From the NCBI GenBank assembly GCA_947489925.1, contig CANLFK010000003.1:1-32054 (forward strand): a DNA stretch of 32,054 bases. Direction: 5' to 3'. This DNA comes from Candidatus Caenarcanales bacterium (GTDB lineage Bacteria; Cyanobacteriota; Vampirovibrionia; Caenarcaniphilales; Caenarcanaceae). Positions 6,781 to 26,810 of the stretch are shown here, piece by piece. How positions within the stretch are numbered: position 1 is the first letter of the stretch; the number at the start of each line of letters is the position of its first letter. Both the position numbers and the translations under genes were made by a program. The notes below the pieces were generated by a model that did no database searches, had not been told where the DNA came from, and saw only the letters and a list, made by a program, of their open reading frames with translations.

Positions 6781-8985
6781 TCACAAATGTCTGTCATTGG
6801 CTTCTTTCATTGTGTCAGCGGATAAATTAACTATTTCTTGATCATTATTTAACTTAACAATTAATTGCGAATTATTTATAACTTTGCCAATTTTCTCAAT
6901 TTTAAGCCTCTCAGATGATTCAAACTCAATGAATTCAGCGGCTGTAATTAAAGCCCTACTTTGTGATTCCCCAATTAAACAAGAATCTAATCTTAAGCTA
7001 AGGTCTTTATTTAAATTAATTTCCGCTCCCAAAGACTTATTAGATGAAGCCATAACTGATTCCATTAAAGTTAATAAAAGCCCATTCTCGCTTAAATCGT
7101 GAGCTGAATGAATATAATGTTTTTTTATTTGTTCGATTAAAAATTCATATAAAGCTTTTTCTTTATTCCAGTCTAGCTTTGGGCAGTCGGTTTCATTAAA
7201 GGTTTCACCAATTAGCCAAATATTATCGCCAGCATTTCTAAAACTTATTGGCGGTGAATTTTTATAATCTTCGACTACTCCGACCATTCCAATAACGGGT
7301 GTTGGCAAAATCTGCTGTCCATCGGCAAATTCATTATACAAACTAACATTTCCGCCCGTTACAGCTAATTCTAATTGTTTGCAACCTTCCGCAATGCCCT
7401 TAACACTTTCTTGCAAAAACCAAAATGACTCGGGCTTTTCAGGATTTCCAAAGTTTAAATTATTAGTTATGGCTAAAGCTTCTGCTCCAATACAAGCTAT
7501 ATTTCTGGCGGCTTCAGCTACGGCAATTTGTGCACCTAAAAAAGGATTTGATTTAACATAATTTGGATTTCCATCAACACTAATAGCCAAGCCTCGTTTT
7601 GAATATTTGCCATCTGGTTTTTTTAAACGCAATAAAGCTCCGCTTCCCATACCCGGTTTTAAAATAGTATTTAATTGTACTTCTTGGTCAAATTGTTTAT
7701 AAATCCAAGCCCTTGAACAACTATTATCAGAACTTAATATATTTAAAGCTAATTTTTCAATAATTTCTTTTTTCGGCTCTAAGTCTGGTTTTCCAAGTAT
7801 ATTAACTGTGTTTTTAGGTGCAATTGCTTCCCGCAAATAAATTGGTGCTTGATCAGTTAAAGCCTTAGGCGGAACTTCAACTACTTTTTCTCCCCGATGA
7901 TAAATAGTAACTAATTTAGTATCAGTAACTTTTCCAATCACGACAGCGGGTAAATTATACTTTTCAAAAATCTTGATTAATTCAGCTTCTTTTCCAGCCT
8001 GAGCCACCAAAAGCATTCTCTCTTGCGATTCAGAAAGCAAATATTCATGCGTCTCTAATTTGCCTCGAGTTGGTACTAAATCCAAATTAACTTCAAAACC
8101 AACTTCGCCTTTGGCACTCATTTCGGTAAAGGCACAAGTTAAGCCCGCCGCCCCCATATCCTGTGAAGCCAAAACAAAACCACTTTTAAAAGCTTCCAGA
8201 CAACTTTCAATTAATAATTTACCTAAAAAAGGATCGCCAATTTGTACGGCTGGTCTGTCTTTATTGCTTTTTTCTGTTAATCCGCTACTAGCAAATGCCG
8301 CACCACCCAAGCCATCTTTGCCAGTTTCCGACCCAACATAAATAATCGGATTACCAATACCAATTGCTCCAGACGGAATCGGATTCTCAGTTTCAAGCAA
8401 ACCAATGCACATGGCGTTTACCAATGGGTTTTCTTTATAAGTTTCATCAAAATATAATTGCCCACCAATTGTCGGAATGCCCGTACAGTTACCATAATGA
8501 CCAATTCCAGCAATTGCATTTGTCAATAAATAATAAGACTTTTCATCAGTCGGTGAACCAAAAAACAAGCTATTCAAAAAAGCAATTGGTCTTGCTCCTA
8601 AAGTCAGAATATCACGCAAAATCCCGCCCACACCAGTTGTTGCTCCCTGAAAAGGCTCAATGGCAGTTGGTCTATTGTGAGATTCAATTTTAAAGGCAAT
8701 TTTAATTCCTTCGCCAATATCAATAATTCCAGCATTTTCACCAGGCCCAGCTAATATTTTGACTTTATTACTTGTGGTTGGGAAAAGCTTTAGAAGAGGC
8801 TTTGAATTTTTGTAAGCACAATGTTCTGACCACATAGCCCCAAACATATAAATTTCATTTTCATTGGGTTCACGCTCCAACAGCTTGACAATCAGCTCAT
8901 ATTCATATAGTGATATTTTAGCTTTACTTAATATATTTCTAAGTTTGAGCTTTTCAGATTTGTCTAGCGTAGAGCTTCTATCCAT
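6781..8985 (-). CDS. purL: Phosphoribosylformylglycinamidine synthase subunit PurL (small-type)
   Basis: MWSEHCAYK, GPGENAG, FKIESHNRP, GATTGVGGILRD, QDMGAAGL, LSESQERM and NFGNPEKPE. Confidence 0.98.
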   Translation of the reverse strand: MDRSSTLDKSEKLKLRNILSKAKISLYEYELIVKLLEREPNENEIYMFGAMWSEHCAYKNSKPLLKLFPTTSNKVKILAGPGENAGIIDIGEGIKIAFKIESHNRPTAIEPFQGATTGVGGILRDILTLGARPIAFLNSLFFGSPTDEKSYYLLTNAIAGIGHYGNCTGIPTIGGQLYFDETYKENPLVNAMCIGLLETENPIPSGAIGIGNPIIYVGSETGKDGLGGAAFASSGLTEKSNKDRPAVQIGDPFLGKLLIESCLEAFKSGFVLASQDMGAAGLTCAFTEMSAKGEVGFEVNLDLVPTRGKLETHEYLLSESQERMLLVAQAGKEAELIKIFEKYNLPAVVIGKVTDTKLVTIYHRGEKVVEVPPKALTDQAPIYLREAIAPKNTVNILGKPDLEPKKEIIEKLALNILSSDNSCSRAWIYKQFDQEVQLNTILKPGMGSGALLRLKKPDGKYSKRGLAISVDGNPNYVKSNPFLGAQIAVAEAARNIACIGAEALAITNNLNFGNPEKPESFWFLQESVKGIAEGCKQLELAVTGGNVSLYNEFADGQQILPTPVIGMVGVVEDYKNSPPISFRNAGDNIWLIGETFNETDCPKLDWNKEKALYEFLIEQIKKHYIHSAHDLSENGLLLTLMESVMASSNKSLGAEINLNKDLSLRLDSCLIGESQSRALITAAEFIEFESSERLKIEKIGKVINNSQLIVKLNNDQEIVNLSADTMKEANDRHL

Positions 8986-16085: not shown

Positions 16086-17876
16086 ATGCCATTTCGTAGT
16101 CATTTTTGTGGAACACTATCTCAATCCGATGAAGGAGCAAATGTTTATTTAGCTGGCTGGGTTGATGTTAGAAGAGATTTAGGTGGATTAATCTTTATTG
16201 AATTGCGAGACCATACTGGAAGAGTTCAATTAGTCTCAGACCCGAAAGTAAATTCTGAAATACATGAAGTTTTTGAAACTTTAAAACCAGAATTTGTCAT
16301 TAAAATAAAAGGCAAAATTAAAGCTCGCCCAGATGGAACTCAAAATCCTGAATTAAGGTCTGGAGCAGTTGAAATTTGTCCAAGCGAAGTAGTGATTTTA
16401 AATAAATGCAAAACTTTACCGCTTCCGATTGAAAACTTTAATGAAGCTGATGAAAATTTCAGATTAAAATATCGAGTTTTAGATTTGCGTACTGATAAAA
16501 TGCAGAAAAATATCAGAGCTAGGCATAAAATTACGCAGTCAATCAGAGATTATTTGAATAAAGGAGGTTTTCTGGAAATTGAAACTCCAATTTTAACTCG
16601 CTCAACACCAGAAGGTGCTCGTGATTATTTGGTGCCAAGCCGTACTCAAGCTGGTAAGTTTTTTGCTTTGCCTCAAAGTCCTCAATTATTCAAGCAATTA
16701 TTAATGATTTCTGGTTTTGAAAGATATTATCAAGTAGCTAGATGCTTTCGAGATGAAGATTTAAGAGCTGATCGTCAGCCAGAATTTACGCAAGTTGATA
16801 TTGAAATGTCTTTTGTGGAAGTTGATGATGTTATAAAAATGGCAGAAGGACTTTTACAGAAAGCTTTTGCGTCAGTTGGTAGAGAAATTGAATTGCCAAT
16901 TAATCGCATGAGTTATAAAGATGCTATTTCAAAATACGGTTCTGATAAGCCAGATTTGCGTTTTGGACTTGAATTAATAGATTTTAGTGAAATTATGAAA
17001 AATAGTGCTTTTGAATCTTTTGCCGCCATTGCGAATAAAAAAGGCTCTGTCAAAGGAATTTGTGTGCCTAATACGCTTGATTGGTCTCGTAAAGAATTTG
17101 ATGATTTGAGAAATACCTGCATAAATGACTATGGAGCAAAGGGTTTGGCTTGGATTAGTTATAAAAATGATGATGATTTAGGGAATTCCCCAATTAGCAA
17201 ATTTTTTAAGCCAGAAGAATTAAAACAAATAAAACAATTAGCAGGTGCTAAAAAGGGAGATAGTATTTTCTTGATTGCGGACAAGTCTCAGCAAGTCGTT
17301 AATGATATTTTGGGCAAATTGCGTTTATATTTGGCTAATAAATTAAACTTGATTGATGAAAAATTAGATAAATTGGTTTGGATTATTGATTGGCCATTAC
17401 TCGAAAAAGATCCTGAGAGCGGTAATTTTGCTTTTATGAATCATCCTTTTACGGCTGTTAATCCGCAAGATTCGCATTTATTAGCTTTAGAGCCAGAGTC
17501 AGCCAGAGCTTTAGCTTATGATATTGTTTATAATGGTGTTGAACTCGGTGGTGGAAGTATTCGTAATCATCAAGAAGATGCACAGAAGAGAGCTTTGGGC
17601 TTTTTGGGTATGACAGAAGAGGAATCTCAAGAGCGTTTTGGCTTTTTATTGCAAGCTTTGGCTTTTGGTGCTCCTCCGCATGGTGGAATTGCCTTGGGCT
17701 TGGATCGCTTAGTTATGATGCTAACTGAATCTGAATCACTAAGACAAGTAATTGCTTTCCCGAAAGTTCAATCAGCTGGTTGTTTACTAACTGGAGCACC
17801 TTCCGAAGTAGATGATCAACAATTAAGAGAATTATCAATTAAGTCTTTGAAAGTGACTAAAGAGAAAGTTAATTAA
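16086..17876 (+). CDS. aspS: Aspartate--tRNA ligase (bacterial type)
   Basis: RSHFCG, RRDLGGLIF, STPEGARDYLVPSR, LPQSPQLFKQLLM, CFRDEDLRADRQPEFTQ and GAPPHGGIALGLDRL. Confidence 0.98.
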   Translation: MPFRSHFCGTLSQSDEGANVYLAGWVDVRRDLGGLIFIELRDHTGRVQLVSDPKVNSEIHEVFETLKPEFVIKIKGKIKARPDGTQNPELRSGAVEICPSEVVILNKCKTLPLPIENFNEADENFRLKYRVLDLRTDKMQKNIRARHKITQSIRDYLNKGGFLEIETPILTRSTPEGARDYLVPSRTQAGKFFALPQSPQLFKQLLMISGFERYYQVARCFRDEDLRADRQPEFTQVDIEMSFVEVDDVIKMAEGLLQKAFASVGREIELPINRMSYKDAISKYGSDKPDLRFGLELIDFSEIMKNSAFESFAAIANKKGSVKGICVPNTLDWSRKEFDDLRNTCINDYGAKGLAWISYKNDDDLGNSPISKFFKPEELKQIKQLAGAKKGDSIFLIADKSQQVVNDILGKLRLYLANKLNLIDEKLDKLVWIIDWPLLEKDPESGNFAFMNHPFTAVNPQDSHLLALEPESARALAYDIVYNGVELGGGSIRNHQEDAQKRALGFLGMTEEESQERFGFLLQALAFGAPPHGGIALGLDRLVMMLTESESLRQVIAFPKVQSAGCLLTGAPSEVDDQQLRELSIKSLKVTKEKVN

Positions 17877-19084
17877 TGGATTTAACCGAGAAATATTATT
17901 GGTTGGCTTTTGATAATTTGCCTGGTATCGGATTAGGACCAAAACGAATTTTTGCTTTACTGGAATATTTTGGTAATTTAAAAACAGCTTGGGAAGCGGA
18001 TAAGCAAGATTTATTGCAAGTTAAAGGAATTGGCGAAAATACAATTGATAATTTTATAAAATGCCGCTCCGAGCAAGACTTAGAATTAATCCCACGCAAA
18101 TTAGAAAAATATAATATTAAGGCTTTGACTTTTGCTGAAAGTGATTATCCAGAGCAGTTAAAACAATTAAAAGACATTCCTTTGATTTTATATTTTAAAG
18201 GTAATTTTGATTTGTCTTTATTTGAAAAGTCAATTGGCATTGTGGGTAGCCGACAGCCAACTGATTATGCAATTCAAGCTATTAAAAATTTGAGTGGTGA
18301 ACTTTCAGAAATGGGTTTTACAATTATTAGTGGTATGGCTTTGGGTATTGATGCGGCGGCACATAAAGGAGTTTTAGCAAATCAAAATGGCAAAACAGTT
18401 GGTGTTTTAGCAAATGGAGCAGATAAATTTATTCCTTATACAAATAAAAACTTATATGAGTCTGTCTTAGAGCAAGGTTTGCTAATTAGTGAATACAAAC
18501 CTGAAACTATGCCAGAAAAAGGTTATTTCCCCGCTCGAAATAGAATAATTGCCGCTTTGAGTCAGGCAGTTTTAATTGGAGAAGCCGCTGTCAAAAGTGG
18601 AGCTTTGATTACTGCTGAAAGAGCTTTAGAGCTGAAAAAACCGATTTTTGGATTAGCTGGAATACCGAATAAAAGCAATGAAGGAATTAATTTTTGGATC
18701 AGAAAAGGCTTGGCTCGCTTAATTACTTCCGCTGATGATATTATTGAAGAATTAGATTTGCATTTGAAAAATAATATTAATCCAGCTCAACAAGGAAATT
18801 TTTTAAAAGAATTAGAAATTATCAAATCAGCAATAACTGTAAGCTCAAATCCTAGACCTATTAAAGAAAAAAAAGAAAAAATTAATCCAGAAAATTTAGG
18901 TTTAAATGAGCAAGAAAAAACTATTTATAATTTATTAACTTTCGGTGAATTTAAGAGCATAGACAAGCTTTTTGAAGAAACTGAATTATCAATTGCAAAA
19001 ATTAATTCGGTGATTTTGACTTTACAATTAAAAAAACTGATTTCTCGCAATCCAGCTGGAGCAATAGGTTTGACCAATAATTAA
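17876..19084 (+). CDS. dprA: DNA-processing protein DprA/Smf
   Basis: IGIVGSR, IISGMALGIDAAAH, FPARNRIIAALS and AAVKSGALITA; C-terminal winged-helix-like region. TAATG overlap with aspS. Confidence 0.96.
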   Translation: MDLTEKYYWLAFDNLPGIGLGPKRIFALLEYFGNLKTAWEADKQDLLQVKGIGENTIDNFIKCRSEQDLELIPRKLEKYNIKALTFAESDYPEQLKQLKDIPLILYFKGNFDLSLFEKSIGIVGSRQPTDYAIQAIKNLSGELSEMGFTIISGMALGIDAAAHKGVLANQNGKTVGVLANGADKFIPYTNKNLYESVLEQGLLISEYKPETMPEKGYFPARNRIIAALSQAVLIGEAAVKSGALITAERALELKKPIFGLAGIPNKSNEGINFWIRKGLARLITSADDIIEELDLHLKNNINPAQQGNFLKELEIIKSAITVSSNPRPIKEKKEKINPENLGLNEQEKTIYNLLTFGEFKSIDKLFEETELSIAKINSVILTLQLKKLISRNPAGAIGLTNN

Positions 19085-19085
19085 A

Positions 19086-19946
19086 ATGAAAATAAGTGAA
19101 TTAAATGATTTAGTAAAAGAATTCCTTGAATTTCACAATTTAAAGTTCAACTCTCAGAGAGCTTATAAAACGGATTTGAAATTTTTTATTGAATTTATTG
19201 TCTCAGAAAAAACAGAATTAGAAAATTTAAAACGAAAAGATTTATTAAATTGGTTAAAAAATTATAATTCAAGGGTTTCTAATCGGCGTGGAGTGAATAT
19301 TCGTAAATTTTTACTATGGCTAAAAAAAGAAAAACAAATACTTATACCCGAAGAATTTAGTTTACCTTGGCAATTTACTGATCCACAGCCCGTAAAACCA
19401 GACCAAACCGCTGATTTAACTGAAGATGAAATTAATAGTTTGTTTACTAATCGCTATTTAAGCCTAAACAAAAAAGCCATTTTAATTTTATTGCTTAATA
19501 CAGCCGCTCCAATTGAGAATTTGGCAACTTTGACTTGGCAAGATATTTGCTTGGATAAATTATCATATTTAAAGCTTGGATCAGACGGCAATGAAAGAAT
19601 TATTAGCCTCGAAAAACCAATTGTTAATTTGCTAAAAGAATTAAAAGAAAAAAATAATCAAGCCTCTCATGAATTTGTTTTTTGCCAAGAAAATACTGCT
19701 GAGCCGATTAATGCTCCTTACTTGGCTATTTTAATTAAAAGAAGTTTGCAAAAAGCCCTTAATAAAAATATTTCCGCCACTCAATTACAGGAATTAGCCC
19801 AAAAAAGACTAACCGAAAAATATAAATTGCCCATTGCTTTAAATATTTTAGGTCTGAAAAAAGCTCACAGTATTTTAACTTCCTCGCCAGATAGTCAAAT
19901 TGATTTAGTCAAATTAAAAAATATTCATCAGTCAGCTTTTGCATAA
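19086..19946 (+). CDS. XerC/XerD-like tyrosine-recombinase homolog, apparently catalytically inactive
   Basis: Core-binding-like N-terminus (NSQRAYKTDLKFFIEF, NRRGVNIRKFLLWL), LTEDEINSLF, box I-like AILILLLNTAAPIENLATLTWQDI, GNERIISL and box II-like ISATQLQE...ILGL. The catalytic R/K/H/R/H/Y positions are not conserved. Confidence 0.75.
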   Translation: MKISELNDLVKEFLEFHNLKFNSQRAYKTDLKFFIEFIVSEKTELENLKRKDLLNWLKNYNSRVSNRRGVNIRKFLLWLKKEKQILIPEEFSLPWQFTDPQPVKPDQTADLTEDEINSLFTNRYLSLNKKAILILLLNTAAPIENLATLTWQDICLDKLSYLKLGSDGNERIISLEKPIVNLLKELKEKNNQASHEFVFCQENTAEPINAPYLAILIKRSLQKALNKNISATQLQELAQKRLTEKYKLPIALNILGLKKAHSILTSSPDSQIDLVKLKNIHQSAFA

Positions 19947-20512
19947 GCTTCATAAACCTCGGCTGGTAATAAATAACGATAAGCCGCTTTTTCAGCCTTT
20001 AATTGCCGAATTAAACTAGATGAAATTGGTAAAGGTAAATTATTTAGCCAAGCCCAATTAAAACCCAAATTATTTAAACTTTTTTCTTTTGTTTCTGCTT
20101 CAGGTTGATAATTTGGTCTTTTAGCAACTAAAAATTCACAAATATCTTTGATTTCATCAATGCAATGCCAAGTTGATAAACTTAAAAAACTGTCTAAGCC
20201 CAAAATCATTTTAATTTTTTTTACTTTATATTCAGCTTGAATTTCTTTTAGGCTAAAAATTGTATAAGAAATATCTCTGTCTAATTCACGCAAATCAAGT
20301 TTAAAGTTTTTATTAGTTTTCAAAGCTATGTCTAAAAGCTTAATTCTATGCTCTAGGCTTAATGAATTATTTTGATTTAATTTATTGGGCGGATTAGGTG
20401 AAAGTATAAAGACGATTTTATCTAAATTAAATTGAAGCAAAGCAGTCTCTGCCAGCATAAGATGACCAATATGGACTGGACTAAAACTGCCGGGGAAAAT
20501 CGCTATATTCAC
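19928..20512 (-). CDS. nadD: Nicotinate-nucleotide adenylyltransferase
   Basis: IFPGSFSPVHIGH, SYTI, ILGLDSF..L..W and ISSSLIR. GTG start; 3' end overlaps the Xer-like gene by 19 bp. Confidence 0.93.
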   Translation of the reverse strand: MNIAIFPGSFSPVHIGHLMLAETALLQFNLDKIVFILSPNPPNKLNQNNSLSLEHRIKLLDIALKTNKNFKLDLRELDRDISYTIFSLKEIQAEYKVKKIKMILGLDSFLSLSTWHCIDEIKDICEFLVAKRPNYQPEAETKEKSLNNLGFNWAWLNNLPLPISSSLIRQLKAEKAAYRYLLPAEVYEAYAKAD

Positions 20513-20515
20513 TAA

Positions 20516-20716
20516 TTACTCAATTGAAACAACTTCTAAGTTTTCATTATAGGTATAAACTTTGCTCTCATCTTCGTCCGAAAATTTCTTATGTGAGCCA
20601 TCACAAAAAGGTTGTGGATCTTCTTCATTCCATTTTTTGGATAAACCACAACGACAAATCCATTTTTCGCCCACTTTTAAAGGGGTTTTGGATTTTAATA
20701 TTACTTTGCGAGCCAT
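20516..20716 (-). CDS. CDGSH iron-sulfur domain protein
   Basis: CRCGLSK...PFCDGSH motif. Confidence 0.9.
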   Translation of the reverse strand: MARKVILKSKTPLKVGEKWICRCGLSKKWNEEDPQPFCDGSHKKFSDEDESKVYTYNENLEVVSIE

Positions 20717-21616: not shown

Positions 21617-21712
21617 TTTATTTTTATAGGTTAAGCGGCTGATTAAATCAATAACTATTTAAAATATACCAAAAAAGCTTTTTCATTTCACAAAACTTAA
21701 AATTTAAAAAAT

Positions 21713-21785
21713 CGCGCTTGGCAGGACTCGAACCTGCGGCCAACCACTTAGAAGGCGGTTGCTCTATCCACTGAGCTACAAGCGC
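21713..21785 (-). tRNA. tRNA-Arg(UCU)
   Basis: Cloverleaf GCGCTTG TA GCTC AGTGGATA GAGC A ACCGC CTTCTAA GTGGT TGGCC GCAGG TTCGAGT CCTGC CAAGCGC G. CCA not encoded. Confidence 0.96.
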
Positions 21786-21801
21786 TTGATATTGTATTAA
21801 A

Positions 21802-21874
21802 TGCACTCGGTGCGGATCGAACGCACGACCCTTGGCTTCGGAGACCAATACTCTATCCACTGAGCTACGAGTGC
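21802..21874 (-). tRNA. tRNA-Arg(CCG)
   Basis: Cloverleaf GCACTCG TA GCTC AGTGGATA GAGT A TTGGT CTCCGAA GCCAA GGGTC GTGCG TTCGATC CGCAC CGAGTGC A. CCA not encoded. Confidence 0.95.
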
Positions 21875-21953
21875 ATAATATTAGCAAGTATCTTAGCTTA
21901 TTTGCCAAATAAAATTAAATTTAAATTACAAATTTTCACTTTTACCTTATTAA

Positions 21954-26735: not shown

Positions 26736-26810
26736 GCGGATGTAATTCAGTGGTAGAATGTCAGCCTTCCAAGCTGAACGTCGTGGGTTCGAGTCCCATC
26801 GTCCGCTCCA
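26736..26810 (+). tRNA. tRNA-Gly(UCC)
   Basis: GCGGATG TA ATTC AGTGGTA GAAT G TCAGC CTTCCAA GCTGA ACGTC GTGGG TTCGAGT CCCAT CGTCCGC T CCA. U73 discriminator; CCA encoded. Confidence 0.97.

Follow-up and report, generated by a model that had tools for sequence, protein, structure and literature searches.

The window studied here, meaning the whole 32,054-nucleotide (nt) stretch of DNA that was analysed, comprises positions 1 to 32,054 (forward strand) of contig CANLFK010000003.1 from the Candidatus Caenarcanales bacterium assembly GCA_947489925.1, and the gene in question lies directly behind dprA and encodes a 286-amino-acid (aa) protein related to the Xer tyrosine recombinases. We found that this protein, whose orthologues we call family A, has the full recombinase fold and none of the active-site residues, and that family A is conserved across the order under purifying selection. 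With moderate confidence, we read family A as a non-cleaving, XerC/D-derived protein that is maintained by this selection and probably serves as a site-specific DNA-binding or architectural protein.

The catalytic-domain profile PF00589 matched the source protein with 38.5 bits (cutoff 27.1) over residues 111–224 only, equivalent to profile positions 3–121 of 172, and the N-terminal core-binding domain matched PF02899 with 22.8 bits (cutoff 22.3). The curated NCBIfam cutoffs for Xer proteins were missed widely (XerA NF040815, 52.9 vs. 220; XerD TIGR02225, 45.4 vs. 329.6; XerC TIGR02224, 41.4 vs. 335.15), and L021, a control protein from a sister family, passed such cutoffs (NF001399, 322 vs. 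279; XerA, 253 vs. 220). When compared by hhalign, family A and the XerD-like proteins of sister families aligned at 99.5 % with an E value of 7e-23 over 269 columns. The AlphaFold2 (AF2) model, based on a 17-sequence alignment, had a mean predicted local distance difference test (pLDDT) score of 86.6, a predicted template modelling (pTM) score of 0.56 and no segment below 50, with core-binding-domain helices at residues 3–17, 21–40, 50–57, and 62–82 and its least confident part in the inter-domain linker (pLDDT 66–74). Foldseek returned 81 matches in the PDB at E ≤ 0.001; among the matches listed, all were tyrosine recombinases, with XerA as the best (4.5e-10) followed by lambda Int, Tn1549 Int, IntI, XerH, Cre, and XerD. 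The ESM Atlas model of the source protein (pTM 0.59) reached template modelling scores of 0.78–0.82 on XerC/D clusters over residues 1–286. These results establish homology to the tyrosine-recombinase superfamily and the presence of its full two-domain fold, core-binding plus catalytic-type, as seen in the AF2 model and the fold searches.

Catalytic positions were located with a HMMER family profile aligned to XerD and XerA structures, with a MAFFT alignment including 20 canonical proteins, and with hhalign, which compared a 17-sequence family-A alignment with nine canonical XerD-like sequences from sister families; a per-sequence catalytic tally served as a further check. The resulting map was the same in four alignments, with Arg-I replaced by P142, Lys by S166, His-I by T232, Arg-II by Q235, His-II by E236, and His/Trp by L257, while the column of the nucleophilic Tyr held D269 (hhalign) or a gap; beyond Y246, the protein has no Tyr at all. 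None of the seven active-site residues was kept in the source protein, nor in 18 of the 21 full-length family-A members (that figure includes every member except three, which keep one or two), and all seven were present in 20 of 20 canonical proteins of the same alignment. A sequence-only reading of this DNA had described an intact 286-aa open reading frame (ORF) starting 1 nt after the dprA stop, with six catalytic residues replaced, no Tyr beyond residue 246, and the core-binding helices and scaffold of a tyrosine recombinase retained. Coordinates confirm the ORF, which is uninterrupted and opens with ATG; the four alignments agree with its residue numbers; and the AF2 model, Foldseek, and the Atlas model recover both the retained helices and the recombinase fold, the absence of which that reading had named as grounds for its rejection.

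What family A conserves lies away from the old active site. Conservation was scored over the 21 full-length members and also over 17 sequences, and most family-invariant residues sit in the core-binding domain (residues 1–92), where the best-conserved positions were F13, K20, N22, S23, R25, A26, Y27, D30, L31, W56, R63, R67, N71, R73, F75, and W78. In the C-terminal domain, T139, E144, L149, W151, R171, K223, G256, and K258 were conserved best, and L277, H281, and F285 of the terminal helix were near-invariant. The Arg-I and Lys columns were among the most variable of the family, with eight different residues, never Arg, in the former and nine in the latter, and the positions equivalent to HxxRH held T232 in 14/21, Q235 in 15/21, and E236 in 14/21 members. 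The 19 canonical proteins compared share 43 near-invariant columns, of which 10 are kept and 23 lost in family A. One canonical Ser has become Glu144 in 20/21 members, and other lost canonical positions now carry Lys or Arg, namely 239 (15/21), 240 and 241 (14/21 each), and 257 (18/21, but Leu in the source protein), next to K258 in 19/21. Lys and Arg together outnumber Asp and Glu in all 21 members, and the invariant or near-invariant residues are mostly basic or polar core-binding positions (K20, R25, R63, R67, N71, R73) together with R171 and K223.

Given these conserved basic core-binding residues, the Lys/Arg gains in the former cleft, and the overall Lys/Arg excess, we infer from sequence that family A is a clamp still facing DNA, in which chemistry has been swapped for plain contacts. 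Such a protein would still clamp DNA in the manner of a recombinase, with contacts made by the basic residues conserved in its core-binding domain and by the newly fixed Lys and Arg of the former catalytic cleft. The C-terminal helix of family A aligns with the terminal helix of canonical recombinases, which in Xer and Cre structures docks on the neighbouring subunit of the assembly. By analogy, the retained helix may contact a second subunit, either another family-A molecule or a protein of family B, the other Xer-like family of this order. Family A would not resolve chromosome dimers; candidate roles are a mark for chromosome organisation or a regulator.

One intact family-A orthologue was present in each of the nine genomes of the order (Caenarcaniphilales-like Vampirovibrionia; eight genera), at 148–524 bits. 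Across 5.8 billion proteins, a word-indexed search gave four family-A clusters. When 1.84 billion representatives were searched exhaustively with a profile, 13 sequences reached E ≤ 1e-30, a further one scored 106 bits, and three more were fragments (P0016, P0020, P0021); below these, scores drop to ordinary Xer proteins near 76 bits. Within a class sample of 151 genomes, 132 had some match, the best one outside the order scoring 80.2 bits, and those outside matches that were translated were canonical (HTLRHSFATH...LGH...Y), except for a truncated Tyr-less form in family f4 (L023). Family A is thus a small, lineage-restricted offshoot of Xer-type proteins.

The Nei–Gojobori ratio of nonsynonymous to synonymous substitution rates (dN/dS) of family A was 0.079 between the source genome and a same-genus relative (87 % aa identity, dS 0.90), more distant genome pairs being saturated at synonymous sites. 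By comparison, the ratio was 0.137 for the nadD-like gene, 0.131 for family B, 0.099 for the ~100-aa ORF c1, and 0.041 for ribH. Contigs of four other public metagenome runs aligned to the gene without indels: X6 carried dprA, the family-A gene, and nadD in one piece with 14 nt differences in the ORF that change two amino acids, X3 had 20 nt differences that change four, and X2 and X7 had no listed differences in the ORF. In the 90 % cluster of the protein, 11 of 14 members were full length, and the rest came from short contigs. A scan of metagenomes for further loci gave two distant ones that were uninformative. Order-wide conservation and purifying selection are evident from these data, which support the view that family A is a maintained pseudo-enzyme and not a decaying gene. 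The sequence-only reading had proposed just this, from the loss of every catalytic residue without frameshifts, and had named a dN/dS near 1 as the outcome that would speak for neutral evolution; the proposal holds.

The only other PF00589 match in the source genome belonged to family B, a 292-aa ORF on contig C53 (L001:1111–1989, + strand; 52.1 bits). Family-B orthologues were likewise found in 9/9 genomes, so that families A and B are co-conserved throughout, and all were Tyr-less. Six of them in the main alignment keep both arginines, have the Lys hairpin deleted, lack the Tyr, and carry G/L and D at the two His positions and Phe at the His/Trp position, and the other three have the same LGFKS...SxEP ending as these six. 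An ORF of 199–269 aa follows family B in 5/9 genomes. Judged from their sequences, both of the conserved Xer-like proteins of this order seem to be catalytically dead. No active XerC/D partner was found in the source genome or in G001, where families A and B accounted for all PF00589 matches, although with genomes 83–92 % complete this absence is not proven; G006 and G008 added only one short fragment each. Canonical-looking integrases were sporadic: G002 had four copies, situated near contig ends, and G003, G004, G005, and G007 had a single one apiece. The G002 copies (on C5, C36, C57, and C23) are canonical and ~310–347 aa long, and three of them lie ~500 bp from contig starts, an arrangement that resembles a repeated mobile element interrupting the assembly. 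The suggestion of a role at dif, with the source protein as XerCD partner or inhibitor, is not supported in the form in which it was made, there being no conserved active XerC/D and a family B, the only other conserved Xer-like protein, that is itself Tyr-less.

Elsewhere in the class, canonical matches of ~140 bits reaching profile position 170–172 were found in 19/19 genomes of family f5, and the idea of f5 as a family without Xer was rejected on this ground. Each f4 genome had one canonical recombinase of ~340 aa and one truncated, Tyr-less form of 265–270 aa, an arrangement reminiscent of streptococcal XerS plus YnbA; the truncated form (L023, L136, L137) ends before the Tyr region, keeps R-I and R-II, and scores 170 bits to TIGR02225, under the cutoff. 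Family f6 and other sister families had canonical pairs of an XerC-like (...HPRA) and an XerD-like protein. In a careful maximum-likelihood tree, A and B each formed clades with 100/100 support on long stems (1.54 and 1.49) apart from the canonical clades, and were grouped with 93/93 support. This grouping may be due to long-branch attraction, and the tree does not assign A or B to either XerC or XerD. A separate oddity is chain 14 of PDB entry 9i5v (401 residues, from a ribosome structure, labelled RaiA), in which the canonical catalytic motifs lie within the first ~290 residues, a part alignable to Xer-type proteins; either a fusion or an error of labelling may explain this.

FtsK domains were searched for in five genomes of the order and found in none (PF01580, 0/5; gamma domain PF09397, 0/5). 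Across the class, 26 of 151 genomes had FtsK matches, mostly weak and partial, with none in f1 (0/8) or f6 (0/32). We rejected loss of FtsK as the cause of the catalytic loss, since FtsK is missing almost class-wide, including in f6 with its canonical Xer proteins.

Several points weigh against the reading of family A as a non-cleaving DNA-binding protein. The order is represented by nine metagenome-assembled genomes that are 83–92 % complete; the pTM of only 0.56 leaves the relative placement of the two domains uncertain; and across the nine genomes no conserved operon partner of family A was found. A scan for dif arms gave matches at the level of the reversed control, using a loose half-site pattern with no dif consensus of the phylum for calibration, since a published prediction failed in cyanobacteria (0/5; PMC3025954). 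We also compared all non-coding DNA of the source genome (31 % GC) with that of the distant genus G007 (47 % GC), which gave 95 matches at ≥38 bits and none in the control. After removal of tRNAs and long matches, the short matches left were the 3′ end of tmRNA (RF00023, 84.8 bits), signal recognition particle RNA, and a 23S end, along with low-complexity sequence, the ORF of rpsT, and an element resembling a promoter in front of an HU gene. No Xer-type site emerged from this two-genera comparison, whose sensitivity did not extend to sites conserved at fewer than ~22 of 28 positions.

The element before the HU-family gene is a 36-nt non-coding sequence, 92 % identical between the two genomes (source genome C22:1067–1102; G007 C4:87162–87197), that reads TTGCAA-N17-TTTAAT on the gene strand and is a conserved promoter-like element. 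Separately, genomes of f6 (e.g., G019, G098, G146) each contain several dif-arm-like 21-mers, which fall into two recurring variants and suggest a repeated element carrying Xer-type half-sites.

Among other explanations, a more specific one assigns families A and B to a terminus-proximal site, where they would act on SMC-ScpAB by unloading or blocking it, a role reported for Bacillus subtilis XerD outside recombination, which would have been retained here after catalysis was lost. PMC12322038 cites XerD for sequence-specific unloading of SMC, and synteny of xerD, scpA, and scpB in most Bacilli is stated in PMC8136486; ScpA and the SMC hinge were each found in 5/5 genomes of the order tested, as was RecA, and A and B occur together in all nine genomes. 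On the other side, A and B show no synteny with smc or scpA, the nearest being ~15 kb away in G007, and neither the dif-arm scan nor the two-genera comparison produced a site. We regard this explanation as rather unlikely, and we give equally low weight to its wider form, in which the order gave up Xer recombination and kept A and B as a non-cleaving pair that marks a site for chromosome organisation or segregation, for example by SMC unloading or blocking.

No more probable, in our estimation, is a role in transcriptional repression or regulation after the manner of MrpR/YopR/SroF, in which the recombinase fold would bind repeated operators. MrpR/YopR combines a recombinase fold with lost catalysis and acts as the SPbeta repressor, according to PMC10516654. 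However, MrpR/YopR (SPbeta) and SroF (phi3T) are encoded by prophages, whereas family A is a single-copy core gene without phage relatives; MrpR keeps three of seven catalytic residues, including the Tyr position, whereas the source protein keeps none; and the family-A protein seems structurally nearer to Xer proteins. No link of family A to phages, plasmids, or defence systems was seen: PADLOC gave 0 matches for family A, tblastn against phage and plasmid sequences gave no family-A match, and PHROGs matches were to generic integrase families only.

Improbable is a family A that no longer binds DNA and works only as a protein–protein scaffold. The strongly conserved C-terminal helix (L277, H281, F285) and the failure to find a DNA site would fit, but conservation is strongest at basic residues within the core-binding domain, the part that contacts DNA in proteins of this fold, and Lys and Arg have been gained in the former cleft. 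We consider it very improbable that family A is still an enzyme with a non-canonical active site or nucleophile: polar residues near the old site are conserved (T232 in 14/21, S262 in 16/21, H281 in 21/21), yet there is no invariant hydroxyl residue near the Tyr position, S262 being C, A, N, or T in 5/21, and the general-acid Lys has been lost together with the two phosphate-binding arginines, their columns now being variable. That the gene is a decaying pseudogene still open by chance, as total catalytic loss and a weak Pfam score might suggest, can practically be dismissed for an ORF that is intact in nine genomes and eight genera at a dN/dS of 0.079, has mostly synonymous population variants without indels, and has invariant residues of its own.

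The reading of family A as a non-cleaving DNA-binding protein has precedents in other catalytically inactive relatives of tyrosine recombinases. In PMC1914069, the streptococcal and lactococcal ‘XerD’, named YnbA (NF002685), is described as lacking the C-terminus and two of R-H-R-Y, as showing neither recombination nor dif binding, and as having an unknown function. As described there, it resembles family A in being a chromosomal, conserved Xer-like protein without catalytic residues, but YnbA lacks the extreme C-terminus and two of the tetrad, whereas the family-A protein runs to full length with its terminal helix in place and retains nothing of the tetrad. Scores to NF002685 (cutoff 178) were 41.2 for the source protein, 54.0 for the best family-A member (P0009), 36.2 for P0014, and 36.6 for P0018, and the losses seen in family B and in the truncated f4 form are closer to those of YnbA than the losses in family A are. 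TnsF of Tn6022-like Tn7 transposons also has an inactivated tyrosine-recombinase domain, which in PMC10293859 is presented as a target selector with sequence-specific DNA recognition. In contrast to TnsF, which is borne on transposons and combines zinc fingers at its N-terminus with tandem core-binding domains and a partial catalytic domain, the family-A protein has a plain Xer architecture, with one core-binding domain and nothing added within its 286 aa. Crypton-derived genes of eukaryotes are a further group for comparison. From XerC, XerD, and XerA, family A differs in having 0/7 active-site residues, scores below every curated Xer cutoff, and a lineage without FtsK. Strict literature searches on Xer-type proteins in Melainabacteria/Vampirovibrionia, supplements not covered, gave no paper on the subject. 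Family A is undescribed in the literature searched, but the earlier description of an ‘undescribed system’ was overstated, since YnbA, MrpR/YopR, SroF, and TnsF already make dead tyrosine-recombinase homologues a known kind.

Positions of the gene, its parts, and its neighbours are given in the table.

Table. Coordinates in the window of the family-A gene, the domains and former catalytic positions it encodes, and flanking genes.
Feature	Position	Strand	Evidence or remark
Family-A gene (catalytically dead XerC/D-derived protein, 286 aa)	19086..19946, stop codon included	+	Pfam, alignments, AF2, fold searches
N-terminal core-binding (SAM-like) domain, residues 1–92	19086..19361	+	PF02899, conservation, AF2
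Inter-domain linker, residues 93–110, subclade motif LPWQFTDPxPxKPD	19362..19415	+	Conservation, AF2
C-terminal domain, residues 111–286, recombinase-catalytic-domain homologue without active site	19416..19943	+	
Codon 142 (Pro), Arg-I position	19509..19511	+	Alignments
Codon 166 (Ser), catalytic-Lys position of beta-hairpin	19581..19583	+	Alignments
Codons 232–236 (TQLQE), replacing HxxRH	19779..19793	+	Alignments
Codons 257–258 (LK), at LG-His/Trp position	19854..19859	+	Conservation
Codon 269 (Asp), aligned with nucleophilic Tyr	19890..19892	+	hhalign
C-terminal helix, residues 274–285	19905..19940	+	Alignment, conservation, AF2
aspS	16086..17876		Overlaps dprA start
dprA (context)	17876..19084	+	PF02481, 225 bits
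nadD-like gene, convergent	19928..20512	-	Overlaps family-A 3′ end

A single nucleotide separates the dprA stop (19084) from the family-A start, and the two genes are probably co-transcribed in the source genome; promoter and terminator scans gave signals no better than those of shuffled sequence, and a look for expression of the gene found no RNA data set listed as containing it. In metagenome run X3, ~125 extra bases separate the end of dprA from the family-A start (record positions 8613 to 8738; window ~19075–19089), so the 1-nt spacing is not fixed even among close strains. Although dprA was present in 9/9 genomes, it lay on another contig than the family-A gene in all eight others. The aspS-dprA-xer run noted in the sequence-only reading is therefore real in the source genome and near-identical strains and goes no further, and a functional link to dprA, including the proposed DprA-linked recombination or competence factor, was rejected with adjacency in 1/9 genomes only. 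In four genera, the family-A gene follows ribH and c1, with the c1 stop overlapping the family-A start, but ribH-c1 lies elsewhere in four other genera, the source genome included, and in G002 c1 is ~100 kb from the family-A gene on the same contig with no ribH adjoining; ribH-c1 was rejected as a conserved operon partner on account of these other locations. ORF c1 is itself conserved in 9/9 genomes, after ribH in at least seven (loci L081:1501–1785 on C101 of the source genome, L072:5722–6039, L074:5217–5546, and L076:6921–7217), and had no family match in Pfam, PADLOC, or the Atlas.

No transposon genes were found near the family-A gene, whose neighbours are aspS, dprA, and the nadD-like gene. 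Beyond these, the window holds a 66-aa ORF resembling CDGSH-type iron-sulfur proteins (20516–20716, - strand; 26.8 bits, just under the Pfam cutoff of 29.5), genes for tRNA-Arg(TCT) and tRNA-Arg(CCG) at 21713–21875 (- strand), and one for tRNA-Gly(TCC) at 26736–26810 (+ strand). The 86-aa ORF listed at 21648..21908 (- strand) is a mere reading across the two tRNA-Arg genes.

In public sources that name them, both families are labelled ‘site-specific recombinase XerD’, a label that would be a wrong basis for inferring working dimer resolution in these genomes. The family-A protein is small and well folded in prediction, which makes recombinant DNA-binding assays feasible without cultivation. 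Our findings raise the questions of how this order copes with chromosome dimers and which non-catalytic activity of Xer-type proteins is under selection. If families A and B do act as a non-cleaving pair, they would represent a natural separation of function, in which a non-catalytic Xer role has been isolated in a lineage that has RecA and SMC-ScpA and lacks FtsK.
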